Shown here piece after piece: positions 1 through 5,591 of a stretch of 5,591 nucleotides of DNA (positions within the stretch are counted from its first letter, which is position 1; each line of letters begins with the position of its first letter). The position numbers were made by a program, and so were the translations under genes. Source of the DNA: a virus; IMG/VR virus record IMGVR_UViG_3300038540_000013, positions 1 through 5,591 of that record; one strand, given 5' to 3'. Under the pieces are notes generated by a model that saw only the letters and a program-made list of their open reading frames with translations, had not been told where the DNA came from and did no database searches.

Positions 1-107
1 ATTACGACCAAATAAGAAATATATAATGAACAAAAAAAATGGGGGCAATGTCCCCATTTGCATTGATGAAAGGGTCAAATACGTACCTACAAAATGCGGA
101 AACTGTA
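1..107. repeat. Terminal direct repeat, copy 1 (circular-assembly overlap)
   Basis: Bases 1..107 are identical base-for-base to 5485..5591 at an offset of 5484 nt. The repeat runs through the rep start codon, as expected for a linearised circle. Confidence 0.95.
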
Positions 108-1111
108 TGGAATGCAGAAAAGCGAAAGCAAGAGAATGGAGAGTTAGATTACTAGAAGATCTAAAAGAACATAAAAACGGAATAATGATAACACTAACAT
201 TTAGCAATGAAAGTATAAGAGAATTAGCAACAGATAAATTAGTGAAAGGATTAACAGGATATACAAAGGATAATAAAATAGCAAAATTAGCATTAAGAAG
301 ATGGTTAGAAAGATGGAGACAAAGAAGGGGCAAAGATGGGAAAAGTCTAAGACATTGGTTAGTCACAGAATTAGGAAGCGGAGAAACGGAACATTTGCAC
401 CTACACGGAATAGTATGGACAAATGAAGGAATAGAAGAAATAAGAAAAAGATGGAAATACGGAAATGTATGGCATGGGACATGGGTAAATGAACAAACAA
501 TAAACTATAGTACAAAATATGTATACAAAATAGATGAAAAACATAAAAACTACAAAAGCATAGTTTTAACAAGTGATGGAATAGGAAAAAACTATTTAAA
601 CAGAACAGACAAAGATAAGAATACATACAAAGAAAATAAAACAAGAGAACACTACAAAACAAGTACAGGGCATAAAATAGCAATGCCAATATACTGGAGA
701 AATAAAATATACAATGAAGAAGAAAGGGAAAAATTATGGATAGAAAAGTTAGACAAAAAATTAAGATGGGTAGATGGGCAAAAAATAGACATAAGCAACG
801 GAGAGGAAGAATACTGGAAAGCACTAAAAGAAGCACAAAAGAAAAACAAAAAACTAGGATATGGAGATGATAATAAAGATTGGGATGCAATAAAATACGA
901 AAACGCATTAAGACAATTAAAAATAAACGAAAGAATAAAAAAAGGGTATATACGGGGCAATAGCGATACAAAAACAAAGGTACAGAACAACAGTAACACA
1001 GATAAAGATAGCAAAGGAAAAGCAAAAATTAACATAGATCAGCATAAGGAAAGTAAATACCCTACGGGTGGGGATAGCATAAAATGGGGGACAAGTAAGG
1101 AATGGGAATAA
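26..1111 (+). CDS. VP4: Replication initiation protein (Microviridae VP4 / phiX A-like HUH rolling-circle endonuclease)
   Basis: 361-aa ORF. It has the N-terminal Cys cluster CGNCMECRKAKAREW typical of microvirus VP4. RCR motif I is ITLTF (nt 188..202). The HUH motif is HLHLHGIVW (nt 392..418). The catalytic Tyr motif is YSTKYVYK (nt 506..529), and SDGIGKNYL lies downstream. The C-terminal ~70 aa are a K/N-rich low-complexity tail. Confidence 0.93.
   Translation: MNKKNGGNVPICIDERVKYVPTKCGNCMECRKAKAREWRVRLLEDLKEHKNGIMITLTFSNESIRELATDKLVKGLTGYTKDNKIAKLALRRWLERWRQRRGKDGKSLRHWLVTELGSGETEHLHLHGIVWTNEGIEEIRKRWKYGNVWHGTWVNEQTINYSTKYVYKIDEKHKNYKSIVLTSDGIGKNYLNRTDKDKNTYKENKTREHYKTSTGHKIAMPIYWRNKIYNEEEREKLWIEKLDKKLRWVDGQKIDISNGEEEYWKALKEAQKKNKKLGYGDDNKDWDAIKYENALRQLKINERIKKGYIRGNSDTKTKVQNNSNTDKDSKGKAKINIDQHKESKYPTGGDSIKWGTSKEWE
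37..59 (+). other. GC-cored stem-loop inside the rep 5' end (duplicated at 5521..5543 by the assembly overlap)
   Basis: AAATGGGGGC (37..46), loop AAT, GTCCCCATTT (50..59). That gives 10 pairs with one G:T wobble (45:51), or a perfect 8-bp stem (37..44/52..59) with a 7-nt loop. It starts 9 nt after the rep ATG. The G5/C4 runs stand out in an A-rich genome. Function is unknown. Confidence 0.5.
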
Positions 1112-1188: not shown

Positions 1189-1560
1189 ATGAAACTAACA
1201 AAAAATTTCAAATCAGAAGAATTCGGGTGCAATGGGAAAGATTTACCAAAAAACCTAATCAAAAACTGTACAAGGGTTGCAGAAGTATTAGAAGTAATAA
1301 GAGAGTTCTTCCAAAAACCAGTTATAATATCTTCAGGATATAGAACATTAAGTCACAATAAAAAAATAGGAGGTAAAGAAAACAGCAAGCATTTAAAAGC
1401 ATTAGCAGCAGACTTTAGAATAAATGGCGTGAAGCATGACCGAATATCTAAGGCAATAGCTTTTCTAACAGGAATTGGAAAGCTAAAACAAATAGAATAC
1501 ACATACTTTAACGAAGAAAGAAACTTCACTCACATTCAACTATATGACAACAAAAACTAA
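1189..1560 (+). CDS. Zinc D-Ala-D-Ala carboxypeptidase-fold cell-wall peptidase (Peptidase_M15_3-like), putative endolysin
   Basis: 123-aa ORF. N-terminal LTKNFKSEEFGC matches the family hallmark (F..EF.C). The core SGYRTLSHNKKIGGKENSKHLKALAADF matches SGYR....N...GG..S.H..G.A.D with G replaced by A. C-terminal FTHIQL supplies the third ligand. Predicted Zn ligands are H68 (nt 1390..1392), D75 (1411..1413) and H115 (1531..1533). There is no signal peptide or TM segment. Confidence 0.85.
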   Translation: MKLTKNFKSEEFGCNGKDLPKNLIKNCTRVAEVLEVIREFFQKPVIISSGYRTLSHNKKIGGKENSKHLKALAADFRINGVKHDRISKAIAFLTGIGKLKQIEYTYFNEERNFTHIQLYDNKN

Positions 1561-1627
1561 TTGGAAAAAAATCTTAGCAGACATTCTTAAAATCATTGCA
1601 GGATTATTAGCAGGAACACAAATCTAA
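1544..1627 (+). CDS. Candidate micro-ORF, 27-aa amphipathic/hydrophobic peptide (MTTKTNWKKILADILKIIAGLLAGTQI)
   Basis: Hand-translated; it is below the ORF-track size cutoff. The ATG at 1544 lies 17 nt inside the 3' end of the peptidase gene in another frame, and the stop TAA is at 1625..1627. It fills most of the otherwise unexplained 1561..1639 gap. This is a T-enriched patch in an A-rich strand. Polar residues K9/D13/K16/G20 fall on one helical face. There is no obvious A-tract leader. Confidence 0.3.
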   Translation: MTTKTNWKKILADILKIIAGLLAGTQI

Positions 1628-1639
1628 CAACAATGAAAA

Positions 1640-1852
1640 ATGAGCACAGAAACAAAGGTTCACCGCTGGACAAGTAAATCTCAATACTTCAATATAGAAA
1701 ACGGGGAGGAGATAACTAAGCAAAACGCTTTAAAAAATTATAATATACTTAGAACAATCAAAAAAACTAAAATCGAATACAACAATGGATATATTGAATA
1801 CTGGCACGAATGCCAAAGAAAAAACCAGCTTAGTATCTGGGGAAATCCGTAA
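1640..1852 (+). CDS. Hypothetical protein (70 aa, mildly basic), ORFan to my eye
   Basis: A + strand ORF that fits tightly into the gene array, with an A-rich leader (caatgaaaaATG) like the other genes. I recognise no motif. Confidence 0.55.
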   Translation: MSTETKVHRWTSKSQYFNIENGEEITKQNALKNYNILRTIKKTKIEYNNGYIEYWHECQRKNQLSIWGNP

Positions 1853-1865
1853 AGGAGAAGAATTA

Positions 1866-2084
1866 ATGAAAAGCGAAATGATACCTAACACACCATTTGT
1901 AGCAAAATGGATTGAAACAGTGGGATGGTTCGCAGTATGCGGAAAGTACAGACTAACAGAACCATTTGAAACAGAAGCTGAACTAATAGCACATGTGGAG
2001 AAACGACCGTGGGACATGATCATAGCTTTAATGAACATAGTACAAATAGAAAACTTAAACTTAATAGAAGAAACAACTAAATAA
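1866..2084 (+). CDS. Hypothetical protein (72 aa from ATG 1866; ORF open from ATG 1785 = 99 aa), acidic
   Basis: ATG 1866 is preceded by AAAGGAG (1851..1857) at 8-nt spacing. It starts just after the upstream ORF stop (1850..1852), so the genes do not overlap. The 1785 start would overlap the previous ORF by 68 nt. I recognise no motif. Confidence 0.55.
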   Translation: MKSEMIPNTPFVAKWIETVGWFAVCGKYRLTEPFETEAELIAHVEKRPWDMIIALMNIVQIENLNLIEETTK

Positions 2085-2092
2085 TAAAAAAA

Positions 2093-4048
2093 ATGACAAT
2101 GAAAGTAAACATAGGCGGGAACCGCTTAGGAAGCGGAAGCAAAATGAAAGTAGATATGCGGACATATAACCGCAGCAATCACAACTTAAGTACAATAGTA
2201 AGAACAACAATGGCACCCGGGACACTAGTGCCATTTTTAAGTTTAGTCGGACTACCAGGGGACACATTTGACATAAACCTAGATTGCGATGTGATGACAC
2301 ATCCAACAATAGGGCCGTTATTCGGAAGCTATAAAGTACAATTAGACGTGTTCACAGTACCAGTAAGATTATACAACGGAAAACTACACAACAACGCTCT
2401 AAACATAGGATTAAACATGAGCAGTATAAAACTGCCATTGATTGAAATGGAAGCAAGCCCGTTAGACATAACAAAAGATCCTGACAACCAACAAATAAAC
2501 CCTAGTTGTATATTCAAATACTTGGGAATAAGCGGACTAGGTAGAGGAACAGACACAACACTAAAAAGGTACTTTAATGCAATACCATATATAGGATATT
2601 GGGACATATATAAAAATTTCTACGCGAACAAACAAGAAGAAATAGGAGCAGTAATACATAACGTACCAAATTCAACTGCTAAAAGTATAGACGAAGTAAG
2701 GCTAGTATGGGTAGGAACAGGGAATAATGTATTTCCCGAAGCACCAATAACAGTAGGACTAGACGTAGACGTAATAGGATTAGATTATATGGAAATAGAC
2801 TATATAGGAACACCACCAACTCTAAGTCAAATAATAATAAATACAGATCTAGGAGAATTTAGTGTAGAAGATATGTTTCTAACAAAAACAGATACAGCAG
2901 GAACAATAAAATGTTCAGGGAATATAAGTGGAGGAGTGTGGATAAATTGGAGATATGCAGATCCAACAGACCTCGGAGATGAAGTACCACAAGTATACAC
3001 ATTCCCGCTAGAAAACATAGACACAATGAGACAATCATTCTTATCAAACACGTTCCTAACAACACCAGTACTAATAACAGATGAAGTAATAGAACCATTT
3101 GGTCTACCATTAAAAAAAACAGGAACGGGGGAAAGTACAAGATGGAGTAAACTAACAAACCTAGAAGGACTAGCATTAAAAACATATCAGAGTGATATGT
3201 TTAATAACTGGTTAGAAACGGAATGGATAGATGGAACAAACGGAATTGCAGAAATAACAAGTGTTGATACAACAGGAAACAGTTTCACAATAGACGCCTT
3301 AAACCTAGCAAGTAAACTATACACACTATTAAACAGGGTTGCAATGAGTGATGGCACATACAAAAGCTGGATAGAAACAGTATATACAAGTGGAGGATTT
3401 TGGAGAGCAGAAACACCAATGTATATAGGAGGATTAAGTAAAGAACTAGTATTCCAAGAGGTAATAAGCAACGCAGAAACATCAGATCAACCACTAGGAA
3501 CATTAGCAGGTAGAGGAAAACTAACTAACAAACACAAAGGAGGTCATATCATAGTAAAGCCTGACGAAATAATGTATATCATGGGAATAATAAGCATAAC
3601 ACCAAGAATAGACTATAGTCAGGGAAACACATGGGATATGAATTTACTAACAATGGATGACTTCCATAAACCTCAACTAGATGGAATAGGATTCCAAGAC
3701 CTAATAACTGATGGAATGGCATATTGGGACACAACAGTTGATGACGAAGGAAATGTAACATATAAAAGCGCAGGTAAACAACCAGCATGGTTAAACTACA
3801 TGACAAACGTAAACAGAACGTATGGAAACTTCGCAATAAAAAACAATGAAATGTTTATGACATTAAACAGAAGATATGAATTTGACGCAACAGATGGCAT
3901 AGTTGATCTAACAACATACGTAGATCCGATAAAATTCAATGATATATTTGCACAAACAGACCGAGGAGCTCAAAACTTTTGGGTACAAATTGGAGCAGAT
4001 ATAGAAGCAAGAAGAGTCATGAGTGCAAAAGTAATACCAAACTTATAA
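2093..4048 (+). CDS. VP1: Major capsid protein (Microviridae VP1 / F-like)
   Basis: 651-aa ORF. N-terminal RSNHNLSTIVRTTMAPGTLVPF..LPGDTF...DVFTVPVRLY matches the conserved microvirus capsid N-terminus. Later blocks also match: AIPYIGYWDIYKNFY, LASKLYTLLNRVAMSDGTYKSWIETVY....PMYIGG, PLGTLAGRG, IMGIISITPRIDYSQG and KPQLDGIGFQDL. An alternative start is ATG 2099. Confidence 0.95.
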   Translation: MTMKVNIGGNRLGSGSKMKVDMRTYNRSNHNLSTIVRTTMAPGTLVPFLSLVGLPGDTFDINLDCDVMTHPTIGPLFGSYKVQLDVFTVPVRLYNGKLHNNALNIGLNMSSIKLPLIEMEASPLDITKDPDNQQINPSCIFKYLGISGLGRGTDTTLKRYFNAIPYIGYWDIYKNFYANKQEEIGAVIHNVPNSTAKSIDEVRLVWVGTGNNVFPEAPITVGLDVDVIGLDYMEIDYIGTPPTLSQIIINTDLGEFSVEDMFLTKTDTAGTIKCSGNISGGVWINWRYADPTDLGDEVPQVYTFPLENIDTMRQSFLSNTFLTTPVLITDEVIEPFGLPLKKTGTGESTRWSKLTNLEGLALKTYQSDMFNNWLETEWIDGTNGIAEITSVDTTGNSFTIDALNLASKLYTLLNRVAMSDGTYKSWIETVYTSGGFWRAETPMYIGGLSKELVFQEVISNAETSDQPLGTLAGRGKLTNKHKGGHIIVKPDEIMYIMGIISITPRIDYSQGNTWDMNLLTMDDFHKPQLDGIGFQDLITDGMAYWDTTVDDEGNVTYKSAGKQPAWLNYMTNVNRTYGNFAIKNNEMFMTLNRRYEFDATDGIVDLTTYVDPIKFNDIFAQTDRGAQNFWVQIGADIEARRVMSAKVIPNL

Positions 4049-4052
4049 AAAA

Positions 4053-4391
4053 ATGAAAGCATACAAATTAAACAAAAGTGTCAAAACGTCACTAAGAGTG
4101 AACGAAAGCATAGAAGGCGAAACAATAGAGCAAAAAATAGAGCGAATTATAAACAATAAAGAGCCTATAAAAGATGGAGCGCCTATAATATTCACAGAAA
4201 GAAAAGATGGAGTAAGACCCGAACACGACATAAGAACAGATAGATGGGATGTAGCAATAGATATGTCAGACAAGGGAGCAAAAGACGCTTTAGCTAAAAG
4301 AAAGGCATACTTGCAAGGAGATAAAAATGACGGCAAAGCCGAATCAACACATGGTGGAGATAAACCATCAGGAGAGGTAATCAGCACGTAA
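4053..4391 (+). CDS. Small conserved-looking virion-module protein, possibly internal scaffolding (VP3-like)
   Basis: 112-aa ORF starting 4 nt after the VP1 stop, behind the same ATAAAAAA leader. The block EPIKDGAPIIFTERKDGVRPEHDIRTDRWDVA resembles a block I recall from small proteins of gut microviruses. The functional call is inferred from size, charge and position next to VP1. Confidence 0.7.
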   Translation: MKAYKLNKSVKTSLRVNESIEGETIEQKIERIINNKEPIKDGAPIIFTERKDGVRPEHDIRTDRWDVAIDMSDKGAKDALAKRKAYLQGDKNDGKAESTHGGDKPSGEVIST

Positions 4392-4406: not shown

Positions 4407-4458
4407 AAAGAGTGCTACGCATGTGTTCTATATTATCAAGAAACAGCTAGCACTCTTT
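4407..4458 (+). other. Long imperfect stem-loop in the main non-coding region (candidate terminator/attenuator or complementary-strand origin)
   Basis: The outer stem is a perfect 11 bp: AAAGAGTGCTA (4407..4417) with TAGCACTCTTT (4448..4458). The inner extension pairs 4419-4420/4446-4447, 4422-4424/4443-4445 and 4426-4429/4439-4442, with single-nt bulges at 4418, 4421 and 4425. The loop is 9 nt (4430..4438). Total is about 20 bp. The 3' arm runs into TTTT (4456..4459). Confidence 0.45.
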
Positions 4459-4473: not shown

Positions 4474-4566
4474 ATGAAAACAACAAATAAAGAAACAATA
4501 ATAGGAAGCATAATAACATTAGTTATACTAACATTAATAACCTTAATAATAAAAAAATGGAATTAG
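4474..4566 (+). CDS. Candidate micro-ORF, 30-aa single-pass membrane peptide (MKTTNKETIIGSIITLVILTLITLIIKKWN)
   Basis: Hand-translated; it is below the ORF-track size cutoff. The leader gagcgaaaaATG is A-rich like the other genes. An 18-residue uncharged core IIGSIITLVILTLITLII is flanked by K/E at the N-terminus and KKWN at the C-terminus. The stop TAG at 4564..4566 overlaps the VP2 start (4557) by 10 nt. This is a locally T-enriched segment in an A-rich strand. Confidence 0.4.
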   Translation: MKTTNKETIIGSIITLVILTLITLIIKKWN

Positions 4567-5468
4567 AAAAAATACTAGGAATGACAAGTCAAGGACTAGG
4601 AGCAATTCAACAAGTAGGGGATATATTAGGAATAGGACACAAAAAACAAGACAAAAGACAGTTAGAACAACAAGAAAAATTAAGTGAACAACAAGCAAGA
4701 ATACAAAATCAAGCACAGATGAAAATGTGGGAAGATACAAATTATTCTGCACAAGTAGAACAACTAAATAAAGCAGGGCTAAACCCCGGACTATTATACG
4801 GCAAAGGAGGAGGAGGTGGAACTACAGTAGGAGGAGGAATAAGTGGAGGACAAGCAGCAAATGCAGCAGCAACACAAACAGCAAATACACAAAGTAGAGG
4901 AATGGCAATTCAACAAGGAATGATGATGGCACAACTAGAAGTTATGAAAAGCCAAGCAAATAAAAACGATGCAGAAGCAGAAGCAATAAGAGGATATAAA
5001 GCCACAGAATCGGGGGCAAGTGCAGCAGAAAGCGCAAGCAGAAAAGCAAGCATAGACTTCCAAAATGAATTAAATAAAACTATAGGAATAAAAGACATGG
5101 CTGAAAGATATAGCTGGGCATCCGATATGACTGCAATACAAAGCCAAAAAATGAACGCAGAATATGAAGCATGGAAAACGGCAGGATTTGAGGGAAAATC
5201 ATTTGACGATCCAAATAGTCCAATGGCAAAGGCAATGAAGGCAGGATATGAAAAAACAATCCAAGATCTAGAAAAAGCAAAATTAGAAAACAACGCACAA
5301 AAGGCAACAAACGTAGTAAAAAATTTCGAAGCAGAATTAGCAAGTCAAGGAATACACCCACATAGTCCTTGGTGGACAAAACTCATAGGAGATATGTTAG
5401 AAAAGGTAGGAATAATGGATATGATAAAAGGAGGACAAAAAGAGGTAAAACAACAAATAAGTCAATAA
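4557..5468 (+). CDS. VP2: Minor capsid / DNA pilot protein (Microviridae VP2, phiX H-like)
   Basis: 303-aa ORF. It has the conserved-type KAGLNPGLLYG motif (nt 4773..4802), followed by a Gly-rich tract GKGGGGGTTVGGGISGG (about 4800..4850). The flanks are Q/A/E-rich and helical/coiled-coil-like. Size and position match VP2 of non-phiX microviruses. Confidence 0.8.
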   Translation: MELEKILGMTSQGLGAIQQVGDILGIGHKKQDKRQLEQQEKLSEQQARIQNQAQMKMWEDTNYSAQVEQLNKAGLNPGLLYGKGGGGGTTVGGGISGGQAANAAATQTANTQSRGMAIQQGMMMAQLEVMKSQANKNDAEAEAIRGYKATESGASAAESASRKASIDFQNELNKTIGIKDMAERYSWASDMTAIQSQKMNAEYEAWKTAGFEGKSFDDPNSPMAKAMKAGYEKTIQDLEKAKLENNAQKATNVVKNFEAELASQGIHPHSPWWTKLIGDMLEKVGIMDMIKGGQKEVKQQISQ

Positions 5469-5484
5469 TGTGCATATATCCAAC

Positions 5485-5591
5485 ATTACGACCAAATAAG
5501 AAATATATAATGAACAAAAAAAATGGGGGCAATGTCCCCATTTGCATTGATGAAAGGGTCAAATACGTACCTACAAAATGCGGAAACTGTA
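5485..5591. repeat. Terminal direct repeat, copy 2 (circular-assembly overlap)
   Basis: Identical to 1..107. It contains the rep leader, the rep ATG at 5510 and the hairpin copy at 5521..5543. Confidence 0.95.
5510..5591 (+). CDS. VP4: 5' fragment of rep/VP4 (same gene as 26..1111, re-read across the circle junction; truncated by window end)
   Basis: ATGAACAAAAAAAATGGGGGCAATGTCCCC... is identical to 26..107. It is an overlap artefact, not a second gene. Confidence 0.6.
   Translation, partial: MNKKNGGNVPICIDERVKYVPTKCGNC

Follow-up and report, generated by a model that had tools for sequence, protein, structure and literature searches.

Microviruses are among the most abundant phages in gut and aquatic viromes. 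Lysis by non-phiX microviruses is still largely unproven, and the genome described here is a compact and complete test case. In phiX174 a single gene is responsible: protein E is an amurin that lyses the cell by inhibition of MraY (mechanism as in PMC3394797). Wall peptidases entered the picture when Roux et al. (2012) described enzymes of the M15_3 family in 11 microviruses and suggested for them both a horizontal transfer and an endolysin role (PMC3394797). Peptidases are now among the recognised lysis-associated accessory genes (Kirchberger et al. 2022, PMC9239249), and M15 peptidase genes occur in cultured microviruses, i.e. in roseophages (PMC11499846) and in vB_RpoMi-Mini (PMC9865509). 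Gp7 of the microvirus Ebor, a peptidoglycan hydrolase of another type, was found in 2025 to be active on peptidoglycan (PMC11980548); it is the only peptidoglycan hydrolase of an ssDNA phage that has been verified biochemically. The literature searched contained no report on the activity of a microviral M15_3 protein. An earlier interpretation of the present DNA, made from its letters alone (the sequence-only reading), had stated that characterised microviruses encode no muralytic enzymes and that M15-like ORFs had been noted sporadically in metagenomic microviruses; given the publications above, this framing as a novelty is not supported as stated. The gene analyzed here is a divergent new example of a phenomenon known since 2012 and not a new phenomenon. 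The good documentation of microviral M15 peptidases means that the question of microvirus lysis is not one that this genome opens.

Related enzymes have been characterised from other sources. LysPM1 from Proteus phage Homer depends on Zn (PMC13461873), and the peptidase M15A of phage ST79 is active by zymogram (PMC5025407). The type enzyme of MEROPS family M15A, the Streptomyces albus G Zn2+ D-Ala-D-Ala carboxypeptidase (1LBU), holds its zinc with H154, D161 and H197 (PMC13461873).

The window, which is the whole stretch of 5,591 nt that was analyzed (IMG/VR record IMGVR_UViG_3300038540_000013), ends in an exact terminal repeat of 107 nt and closes to a circle of 5,484 nt. We call a genome gokushovirus-like Microviridae when it is circular, has about 4.5-6.5 kb and carries VP1, VP2 and VP4 on one strand. 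The window has the F-type capsid protein VP1, the pilot protein VP2 and the Rep protein VP4 all on one strand, and its nearest DNA relatives are microviruses without exception; it is a complete gokushovirus-like microvirus. The M15 gene lies, as had been claimed, between rep and the capsid module, with the VP5-like, VP3-like and VP1 genes downstream (Table 1). The accessory slot is bordered on its downstream side by orf70 and orf99 (1640..2084). Scans for promoters and terminators gave nothing above chance level and Rfam gave zero matches.

Table 1. Features of the window discussed in the text, with the evidence for each assignment.
Feature	Position	Strand	Evidence and remarks
VP4/Rep gene, upstream edge of the accessory slot	26..1111	+	Pfam REP_ORF2-G2P E=9.6e-11; PHROG 942 replication initiation protein E=3e-19
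M15_3 / M15A-type LAS zinc peptidase gene, 123 aa, candidate endolysin	1189..1560	+	Pfam, PHROG, AF2, Foldseek, dN/dS
Codons of the predicted zinc-ligand motif H68-x6-D75	1390..1413	+	H68 CAT 1390-1392; D75 GAC 1411-1413; within S66-x-H-x2-A-x-A-x-D
Codons of the predicted C-terminal active-site strand F113-T-H115-I-Q117-L-Y119	1525..1545	+	H115 CAC 1531-1533; Q117 CAA 1537-1539
ORF27, 27-aa basic-then-hydrophobic peptide MTTKTNWKKILADILKIIAGLLAGTQI	1544..1627	+	overlaps the 3' end of the M15 gene; conserved in L003
orf70, VP5-like	1640..1852	+	homologues in same order in L003 and L025-L027
orf99, VP3-like scaffold	1785..2084	+	same order in L003 and L025-L027; L025 homologue annotated 'putative VP3'
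VP1 major capsid protein gene	2093..4048	+	Pfam Phage_F; PHROG 514 E=1.4e-38; thousands of microvirus homologues
ORF30, 30-aa single-pass TM peptide MKTTNKETIIGSIITLVILTLITLIIKKWN	4474..4566	+	KD17 = 2.8; overlaps the VP2 start
VP2 DNA pilot protein gene	4557..5468	+	PHROG 8689 'pilot protein for DNA ejection' E=9.4e-12

The M15 reading frame runs from ATG to TAA. No in-frame start comes between the preceding stop and this ATG, and the resulting N-terminus, MKLTKNF, is the same as in many homologues. Residues 6-116 match positions 2-107 of the 108 positions of Pfam PF08291 (Peptidase_M15_3) with E=1.5e-18 and 67.4 bits, where the curated gathering cutoff is 23.2 bits; PHROG 894 'endolysin' is matched with E=3.9e-29. 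The protein matched 6,506 cluster representatives in an exhaustive HMMER search (E<=1e-3). The AF2 model is confident (pLDDT 94.8). A Foldseek search of the PDB with this model returned 1LBU on top (E=2e-4, TMq 0.71), followed by Hedgehog-N, ChiX, LysB4, LdcB and VanY, while viral models named 'Peptidase M15A' were matched with a TMq of up to 0.89. 1LBU is also the sole PDB relative seen by sequence (profile E=3.6e-14). Two neighbouring families remained below threshold, namely Pfam Peptidase_M15_2 (17.4 bits against a cutoff of 27) and NCBIfam MepK (NF053624; 28 bits against 185). Together, profiles and model identify the product as a homologue of the LAS-fold zinc peptidases (MEROPS M15A / Pfam Peptidase_M15_3), and the sequence-only reading was right in placing an M15-type peptidase in a microvirus. 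It was also right about the missing signal peptide: the best 19-residue Kyte-Doolittle mean is only 0.88, and the protein has neither a signal peptide nor a TM segment. Hundreds of its tailed-phage homologues are annotated as endolysins, and the free-standing form of 110-160 aa is their endolysin form.

The gene is clearly maintained. A comparison with its counterpart in the second member of the lineage (L003) gave a dN/dS of 0.10 at a dS of 0.72, and 34 of the 54 differences fall on third codon positions. An independent assembly is identical. These data mean that the M15 gene is under purifying selection. The fact that a gene with this dN/dS takes up 6.8% of the genome argues for a strong function.

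The motif pattern of the protein is F7-x3-E11-F12-x-C14, then S49-G-Y-R52-x4-N57-x3-G61-G62-x3-S66-x-H68-x2-A71-x-A73-x-D75, and finally H115. The segment S66-K-H68-L-K-A71-L-A73-A-D75 fits S-x-H-x-x-G-x-A-x-D, with Ala71 in the position of the Gly. An ungapped phmmer alignment to residues 126-163 of 1LBU pairs H68 with H154 and D75 with D161; both columns are invariant among 151-152 aligned homologues. N57 and S66 are invariant too, and R52 is invariant in 152 sequences. It matches the conserved substrate-carboxylate Arg (R138 of 1LBU, R47 of LysPM1), and the spacing R52-H68-D75 (16, 7) is that of R138-H154-D161 in 1LBU and of R47-H63-D70 in LysPM1. The HMMER alignment to 1LBU stops short of the C-terminal part, and a consensus C-terminal peptide matched nothing. 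The third ligand was assigned from the conservation of its column (every one of the 135 homologues aligned there has His), from the predicted strand and from the published superposition of LysPM1 and 1LBU. In the AF2 model F113-T-H115 is located on strand 113-118, comparable to F102-x-H104 in LysPM1 and H195-x-H197 in 1LBU. The predicted zinc ligands are hence H68, D75 and H115, the last being the distal His that is conserved in the family. The same three residues had been named before. A full family signature had been claimed as well; the named motif elements are indeed present, but their spacings were slightly miscounted and the Asp at His+2 is absent.

This absence deserves attention. The family motif H-x-D-x-R reads H115-I-Q117-L-Y119 in the window protein. 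Asp occupies position 117 in 126 of 134 homologues (94%); Gln occurs there only in the window protein and in P0002, and the other Asp-less homologues (n=6) carry G, A or N. At position 119 Arg is found in 108 of 127 homologues (85%), here replaced by Tyr. E103 stands where the homologues have a near-invariant Gly, and three residues (EER) are inserted. The active-site acid is thus replaced by Q117 at His+2, and F113 takes the position of the general base H195 of 1LBU, which leaves no obvious general base. In LysPM1 no acidic residue other than D106, the corresponding Asp, is near the active site, and D106 was proposed, on grounds other than mutagenesis, to act as the proton shuttle (PMC13461873). 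Judged from the alignments, Gln117 in place of this Asp is a new point of the lineage, and a natural Asp-to-Gln change provides a handle on the catalytic proposal for M15A enzymes. The lineage keeps three acidic residues, E64, E103 and D/E120, which are candidate substitutes for the Asp.

One may ask whether the protein has kept fold and zinc site while its catalysis was altered, so that it cuts another bond in a non-canonical way or, instead of being an efficient lysin, serves chiefly to bind peptidoglycan or to regulate. The exchanges at positions 117, 119 and 103 and the EER insertion point in this direction, the more so if the Asp transfers protons as proposed for LysPM1; the recurrence of Asp-less variants in six further homologues adds to it. 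The changes are shared by both members of the lineage, in which purifying selection is strong, and hence represent a stable state and not decay. On the other hand, all three zinc ligands are kept together with R52, N57 and S66, the idea of a catalytic Asp is itself a proposal, the acidic residues of the lineage could stand in for it, and the investment of so much of the genome at such a low dN/dS points to strong function. We consider an altered catalysis rather unlikely.

The horizontal origin that had been claimed for the gene is plausible. The closest capsid relatives (VP1 59-66% identical) have no M15 gene, and the identity of the protein to other microviral M15 proteins (35-37%) is no higher than that to tailed-phage proteins (37-38%); both facts make an acquisition by horizontal transfer plausible, and the gene lies outside the conserved core. 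The second part of the claim, a host or a tailed phage as donor, did not find support. A word-indexed protein search gave the protein itself and one relative with 86% identity, and the exhaustive HMMER search gave nothing else above about 50%. Scans of IMG/VR and metagenomes reached at most 44% identity, mostly on contigs not from microviruses, and a scan of bacterial genomes gave no match. In GenBank the protein matches at least 130 microvirus records.

The slot behind rep is variable. Sister virus L026 has a Hedgehog-type LAS Zn hydrolase in the same slot and L028 a DUF5675/Tlde1-like protein. Sister viruses hold non-orthologous wall-enzyme-like genes there, which is a new point. Other sister genomes leave the post-rep slot empty.

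An enzyme without an export signal requires a membrane lesion in order to reach the wall, and the window contains two small hydrophobic ORFs which are the best candidates for causing it. ORF27 is read in the +1 frame, and its ATG precedes the M15 stop codon by 14 nt; length and arrangement of this ORF are the same in L003. In simulations the probability of an ORF that stays intact and hydrophobic was 0.033, and that of 6 or fewer amino acid changes was 0.009. Omega, from the one pairwise comparison with L003, is 0.22. The hydrophobicity is weak (KD17 1.5-1.8), with D13 and K16 breaking the stretch, and the peptide has no family match. We regard this conserved 27-aa hydrophobic ORF, which overlaps the M15 stop codon, as a new point; ORF27 may be a translationally coupled, membrane-active partner of the peptidase. 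A comparable ORF is present at 1 of the 42 other M15 loci, and the idea that M15 genes are generally followed by a hydrophobic ORF is ruled out, since 41 of 44 loci have none. A fusion of M15 protein and ORF27 by +1 frameshift, with ORF27 as a C-terminal anchor, was also considered. The A-run of the window would permit a slip of the Lys-tRNA, and some homologues carry a C-terminal anchor; L003 has no equivalent slippery site, and a separate start at the conserved ATG is preferred.

ORF30 is a strong TM peptide located 2.9 kb from the M15 gene. The closest relative, L067, has a 30-aa positional analogue, which agrees with ORF30 in the context of its ATG and overlaps VP2 in the same way. PHROG matches of ORF30 are at chance level only, and neither ORF27 nor ORF30 fits a holin family. 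ORF30 was rejected as a conserved core gene, because it is absent in L025-L028, L069 and L070 and found only in the nearest relative; it is tentatively a second candidate for a membrane or lysis protein. Among the small ORFs of the + strand, none shows a lipobox Cys or the Rz-like features of spanins. Spanins are dispensable for some phages. On holin partners of microvirus endolysins the literature searched contained nothing specific.

The explanation that we favour, and believe to be probably correct, is that the M15 protein is a zinc wall peptidase carried as an accessory gene and used for lysis at exit in conjunction with a separate membrane lesion. The enzyme would be a cytoplasmic single-domain zinc metallopeptidase of about 14 kDa, of the same globular type as the endolysin of many Gram-negative tailed phages, and would be made late in infection. 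With Zn2+ held by H68, D75 and H115, and after a lesion possibly made by ORF27 or ORF30, it would cleave the peptidoglycan at a peptide bond of its stem or cross-link; the wall would then fail and release the progeny. Family, fold, placement of the ligands, purifying selection, position of the gene and its presence specific to the lineage are established here; the enzymatic activity, the bond cut, the timing at exit and any part played by the small peptides are inferences. An endolysin role is favoured because the characterised relatives LysPM1 and ST79 M15A lyse cells or degrade peptidoglycan, because the same role has been proposed in the literature for microviral M15 peptidases and one microvirus peptidoglycan hydrolase is active, and because sister microviruses hold other wall enzymes in the same slot. 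Against it stand the occurrence of the M15A domain in tail-associated entry lysins, the changes Q117, F113, Y119 and E103 with the 3-residue insertion, and, for the membrane partners, the interrupted hydrophobic stretch of ORF27 and the absence of ORF30 from most relatives.

A more specific version, which is conceivable but doubtful, is a miniature lysis module, in which an M15A peptidase that lacks a signal, and whose active site has been rewired, is joined to ORF27 as its coupled, amphipathic partner for permeabilising the inner membrane, and the post-rep position is a general lysis slot. ORF27 could then explain how a signal-less enzyme gains access to the wall in an ssDNA phage. If true, no smaller holin-like partner would have been described, the two proteins would be the first pair of the holin-endolysin type to be recognised in an ssDNA phage, and related microviruses would have plugged unrelated wall enzymes into one general lysis slot.

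The tail-associated lysins bring up a role in entry, with a few copies of the enzyme in the virion opening the peptidoglycan locally at genome delivery. M15A domains reside inside tail or baseplate proteins of tailed phages (e.g. Gp5-like proteins of 500-1200 aa), and the Ebor hydrolase Gp7 was found in virions in trace amounts (PMC11980548). The traces did not lead the authors of that study to claim an entry role, there is little room to spare in a T=1 capsid, and the closest relatives of the window virus infect without such an enzyme. The free-standing form of the protein is the endolysin form in tailed phages, and no fusion to VP2 or another structural protein occurs. An entry enzyme is therefore unlikely.

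Still less can be said for a non-lytic remodelling of the wall, in the manner of a D,D- or L,D-carboxypeptidase, for superinfection block or tuning of the host, with a small membrane protein as the single-gene lysis factor. 1LBU, the type enzyme, acts as a carboxypeptidase rather than a lysin, and the window protein has the weak, sub-threshold likeness to the L,D-endopeptidase MepK. The closest capsid relative has no wall enzyme, yet it retains a 30-aa TM ORF at the position of ORF30, so that an ORF30-type peptide might be the real lysis factor. However, without an export signal the wall is out of reach until the membrane is breached, which suits a role at the end of the cycle; the phage M15A proteins so far characterised are lytic, and the literature searched offered no precedent. 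We judge this role to be quite improbable. A reading frame open by chance, an artefact of assembly and a pseudogene in decay are all practically out of the question, as only the atypical C-terminal motif points that way, against strong profile matches, a confident fold, the identical independent assembly and the substitution pattern relative to L003.

The lytic peptidase that we favour can be compared with several known systems. phiX174 protein E also provides a microvirus with its lysis function, and ORF27 and ORF30 resemble it solely as small membrane-type peptides. E is non-enzymatic, overprinted and blocks wall synthesis, whereas the window has a separate and plausibly horizontally acquired gene for a putative wall-degrading enzyme. 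Ebor Gp7 is, like the window protein in its proposed role, an accessory enzyme for wall degradation encoded next to rep; it belongs to a non-M15 family (the HHpred match in the paper is 6SSC_A), to the lineage 'Tainavirinae' and to a phage of Rhodobacter (PMC11980548). The bacterial enzymes are more distant. 1LBU, with 22% identity, is a secreted carboxypeptidase of 213 aa with an extra N-terminal domain; its H154/D161/H197 and R138 correspond to H68/D75/H115 and R52, and its general base H195 to Phe113. MepK (YcbK) of E. coli, an L,D-endopeptidase of Peptidase_M15_2, belongs to the same clan and gives weak matches; it is exported, while the window protein has no signal.

The microviral M15_3 proteins come from small ssDNA phages as well and are members of the same Pfam family, but are only 29-37% identical to the window protein; they include those of KX513864 (Human gokushovirus 'peptidase M15'), MG945781, Microvirus mar50/52/54/59 and the bajarodmic and Dulem viruses. 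The gokushovirus examples occupy the same place, after VP4 and before VP5/VP3/VP1, and the M15 proteins of the mar viruses match the window protein in structure with a TMq of 0.71-0.83. The KX513864 protein is nearer to endolysins of SP6/K1E-type coliphages (52-57%) than to the window protein, which implies a separate acquisition. The other microviral proteins keep the canonical F-T-H-I-D-x-R where the window protein has H-I-Q-L-Y, and their loci are without the overlapping 27-aa ORF.

LysPM1 (PMC13461873) and ST79 M15A (PMC5025407) have 116-132 aa, compared with 123 aa in the window. Like the window protein, to which they and their kind are about 35-38% identical at best, they have one Peptidase_M15_3 domain only and carry neither a binding domain nor a signal peptide, and all three have the constellation R / H-x6-D / F-x-H in common. 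The two phage enzymes act within the holin and spanin cassettes of dsDNA phages, and LysPM1 has D106 at His+2, in contrast to the Gln of the window protein. LysPM1 and ST79 M15A are both lytic in experiments on permeabilised Gram-negative cells.

The window is a complete genome of a gokushovirus-like microvirus. Its last 107 nt (5485-5591) are a perfect direct repeat of positions 1-107; the assembled molecule is therefore a 5,484-nt circle. It is 100% identical to an independently assembled Logan contig (L066, SRR5416890). All of the substantial ORFs are on the plus strand, and its nearest relatives at the DNA level are without exception microviruses of faecal or environmental origin, with 65-69% identity across part of the genome. 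The 112-aa ORF directly 3' of VP1 is kept in all close relatives (L025-L028; E 1e-25 to 1e-29); it has no match in Pfam, PHROG or NCBIfam. No Shine-Dalgarno-like motif (GGAG, GAGG, AGGA, AAGG) occurs within 25 nt upstream of any of the nine plus-strand genes, the gene leaders are A-rich and the genome GC content is 34%. Together with the best tailed-phage matches of the M15 protein, which are from Flavobacterium, Prevotella and Bacteroides phages, these features hint at a host from the Bacteroidota.

Features of the window and of compared loci
Locus	Feature	Position	Strand	Basis
Window	VP4/Rep	26..1111	+	Pfam REP_ORF2-G2P; PHROG 942
Window	M15 peptidase ORF, 123 aa	1189..1560	+	Pfam Peptidase_M15_3; PHROG 894
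Window	ORF27, 27 aa	1544..1627	+	
Window	VP5-like and VP3-like, two small overlapping ORFs	1640..1852 and 1785..2084	+	position and homology to annotated relatives
Window	VP1 capsid	2093..4048	+	Pfam Phage_F; PHROG 514
Window	conserved 112-aa ORF	4053..4391	+	conservation among relatives
Window	DNA hairpin	4407-4458	+	z = -4.5
Window	ORF30, 30 aa	4474..4566	+	
Window	VP2 pilot protein	4557..5468	+	PHROG 8689
L003	61-aa ORF	390-575	+	
L026 (MG883709)	slot protein, 107 aa	1173-1496		Hedgehog N-terminal domain, Pfam HH_signal above threshold
L028 (MH572526)	slot protein, 118 aa	4489-4845		DUF5675, 46.5 bits; weakly similar to Tlde1 domain family
L067	DNA hairpin	about 3219-3275		z = -7.8
L067	30-aa TM ORF	3291-3383		

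The sequence-only reading had assigned the 123-aa ORF to the M15 peptidases, and its description of the ORF is exact. The protein matches Peptidase_M15_3 at 67.4 bits (cutoff 23.2) over essentially the full profile and PHROG 894 'endolysin' with E=3.9e-29; an exhaustive HMMER search of 1.84 billion cluster representatives gave 6,506 relatives at E<=1e-3. An AlphaFold2 model, computed from a 76-sequence alignment, has a mean pLDDT of 94.8 and a pTM of 0.88. Its top match in the PDB is 1LBU, the Zn2+ D-Ala-D-Ala carboxypeptidase of Streptomyces albus G (TMq 0.71), followed by the LAS enzymes Hedgehog-N, ChiX, LysB4, LdcB and VanY. Among the models of a viral structure library it comes closest to tailed-phage 'Peptidase M15A, C-terminal' proteins and to the 'Peptidase' of several microviruses, with TMq up to 0.89.

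The predicted zinc ligands H68, D75 and H115 are also borne out, by alignment to 1LBU for the first two, by column conservation, and by the location of H115 in an F-x-H motif on a beta-strand predicted in the model. Residues 40-77 align in phmmer without gaps to residues 126-163 of the 1LBU chain, with H68 on H154 and D75 on D161 (profile E=3.6e-14). The zinc ligands of 1LBU are H154, D161 and H197; their equivalents in LysPM1, the M15A endolysin of Proteus phage Homer, are H63, D70 and H104, and R47 of LysPM1 corresponds to R138 (PMC13461873). The 16- and 7-residue spacings between R52, H68 and D75 are the same as those of the equivalents in both enzymes. R52, N57, S66 and H68 are invariant in 152 aligned homologues, the D75 column contains Asp in 151/151, and all 135 homologues aligned at H115 have His there.

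The claim of a full family signature holds for the motifs and zinc ligands but overlooked the C-terminal active-site strand. This strand usually reads (F/W/H)-x-H-x-D-x-R, with Asp at His+2 in 126/134 and Arg at His+4 in 108/127 homologues. The window protein and its sole close relative, encoded on Logan contig L003, have F-T-H-I-Q-L-Y, so that Q117 and Y119 replace the Asp and the Arg. In LysPM1 the equivalent Asp, D106, is the only acidic side chain close to the active site, and a part in proton transfer has been proposed for it; the Phe at His-2 takes the place of H195, the general base of 1LBU (PMC13461873). With Gln at the first of these positions and Phe at the second, the window protein has neither candidate general base. 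Further departures from the family are Glu103, where a Gly is nearly invariant, and a three-residue insertion. Other microviral M15 proteins (KX513864, MG945781), in contrast, keep the canonical H-I-D-x-R. Judged from the two related sequences, these peculiarities are not decay, because dN/dS of the gene is 0.10 at dS = 0.72 between the window and the 86%-identical L003 relative, and the unusual residues are kept: Q117, Y119, E64 and E103 are the same in both proteins and residue 120 is acidic in both. E64, E103 or the acid at position 120 may reach the zinc-bound water. We consider it rather unlikely that the Gln117/Tyr119 site marks a changed chemistry or a protein that mainly binds.

Apart from the L003 relative, HMMER found no homologue above about 50% identity among the 1.84 billion representatives. 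The closest M15 loci in IMG/VR and metagenomes have 31-44% identity and are mostly not from microviruses. The window protein is 29-37% identical to other microviral M15 proteins versus 37-38% to proteins of Flavobacterium, Prevotella and Pectobacterium phages. The M15 protein of a human gokushovirus is 52-57% identical to endolysins of SP6/K1E-type coliphages, much closer than to the window protein. Furthermore, none of the viruses with the most similar capsids (VP1 59-66% identical to that of the window; VP4 E about 1e-98) has an M15_3 gene. The identity pattern and this absence fit an acquisition specific to the window lineage and separate from that in human gut gokushoviruses. The proposed horizontal acquisition is plausible; no donor can be named from the homologue searches.

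The interval between rep and the VP5-like gene contains different cargo across sister genomes. The L026 protein, which aligned to solved Hedgehog structures over both LAS zinc motifs (H-x6-D, H-x-H; E about 1e-5), is another LAS zinc hydrolase, and the L028 protein a possible wall enzyme; other genomes have unrelated small proteins or almost nothing in this slot. Related microviruses seem to have replaced one cargo by another, non-orthologous one in a single accessory slot. The presence of a second LAS hydrolase and a possible wall enzyme among the replacements supports, but does not prove, a lysis-type role of the slot. Its content differs even within the M15 lineage, since L003 has an extra ORF immediately 5' of M15 that stops 2 nt short of the M15 ATG; at this place after rep the window is non-coding.

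As originally stated, the M15 protein has no signal peptide; it contains no hydrophobic segment (best 19-residue hydropathy 0.88). Several homologues (P0004, P0006, P0014, P0016, P0035, P0092) bear hydrophobic segments of their own, either N-terminal (signal or SAR-like) or C-terminal, and the M15_3 family thus solves access to membrane and wall in different ways. Two small ORFs, neither with a match to any known family, are candidates for the membrane access of the signal-less enzyme. ORF27 lies in the +1 frame relative to M15 and starts with an ATG 14 nt ahead of the stop codon of M15; its product, MTTKTNWKKILADILKIIAGLLAGTQI, begins with basic residues and continues into a mostly hydrophobic stretch of 18 residues. 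The L003 counterpart, MKSRINWKAIIADILKIVAGILTGTQL, has the same length and arrangement although the two differ by 24% over the 66 nt outside the overlap. When 16 random substitutions were simulated, ORF27 stayed intact in 18% of the trials, intact and hydrophobic in 3.3%, and with <=6 amino-acid changes in 0.9%. The hypothesis for ORF27 is built on this one sequence pair, for which its dN/dS is 0.22. In a control, 1 of 42 other M15 loci had a hydrophobic ORF overlapping the M15 3' end. The lack of a slippery site at the corresponding point of L003 makes a +1 frameshift fusion of M15 and ORF27 unlikely.

ORF30 encodes a textbook single-pass TM peptide, MKTTNKETIIGSIITLVILTLITLIIKKWN (KD17 2.8). 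It lies between the 112-aa ORF and VP2 and ends inside the VP2 start. A TM ORF that shares this VP2 overlap and the ATG context occurs in L067, the closest relative by capsid; no analogue was found in the more distant relatives examined. From its position and physico-chemical character ORF30 could be a lysis or membrane protein. Just 5' of ORF30 is a strong DNA hairpin, which is a candidate replication-origin/nick site or terminator. The window and L067 share its loop motif CGCATsTGTTCTATATTAT, which is absent in the other 67 loci, and the stem differences between both genomes are compensatory.

We consider it probable that the M15 product is a functional Zn-dependent peptidase, which would act on peptidoglycan as an endolysin at the end of infection; a small membrane-active protein would give it passage through the membrane. 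A role in entry is quite unlikely, even with M15A domains being found in tail-associated lysins and with Ebor Gp7, a microvirus peptidoglycan hydrolase of another fold, occurring in virions in trace amounts (PMC11980548). It is very unlikely that M15 performs non-lytic wall trimming while a small TM protein is the true lysis factor. A chance ORF or pseudogene is excluded by the profile matches, the confident fold, the identical independent assembly and the low dN/dS.

The observation made from the sequence is correct and its functional reading reasonable, but the gene is not novel as a kind. M15_3 peptidases in microviruses have been known from publications since 2012 and are widely annotated. 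Roux et al. (2012, PMC3394797) described them in 11 microviruses (5 gokushoviruses and 6 alpaviruses), made the case that they were repeatedly acquired by horizontal transfer and suggested that they act as endolysins. Kirchberger et al. (2022, PMC9239249) listed peptidases among the recognised accessory genes associated with lysis, which some families carry as a fixed gene between VP1 and VP4 and which are otherwise sporadic, and gave evidence for transfer between microvirus families. An M15 peptidase gene is also present in the cultured microvirus vB_RpoMi-Mini (PMC9865509) and in 5/6 Roseobacter microviruses (PMC11499846). Our survey of carriers by tblastn with the M15 protein matched 832 phage-collection records, of which at least 133 are microviruses by name (bajarodmic 81, Microviridae 29, Microvirus 23), many annotated 'peptidase' or 'peptidase M15'. 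Two gokushovirus genomes share the window order exactly: VP4, peptidase, VP5, VP3, VP1, VP2. The statement that functional studies are lacking is partly outdated: Ebor Gp7 was shown in 2025 to be active on peptidoglycan (PMC11980548). The tailed-phage M15A endolysins LysPM1 (PMC13461873) and ST79 (PMC5025407) have been shown to be lytic. None of the literature searched reports biochemistry on an M15_3 protein from a microvirus. Three features merit a modest follow-up: the natural replacement of the active-site Asp by Gln, kept under strong selection; the conserved 27-aa ORF overlapping M15; and the interchangeable wall-enzyme slot of the sister genomes. The window M15 gene is a divergent addition to the known microviral M15_3 peptidases.
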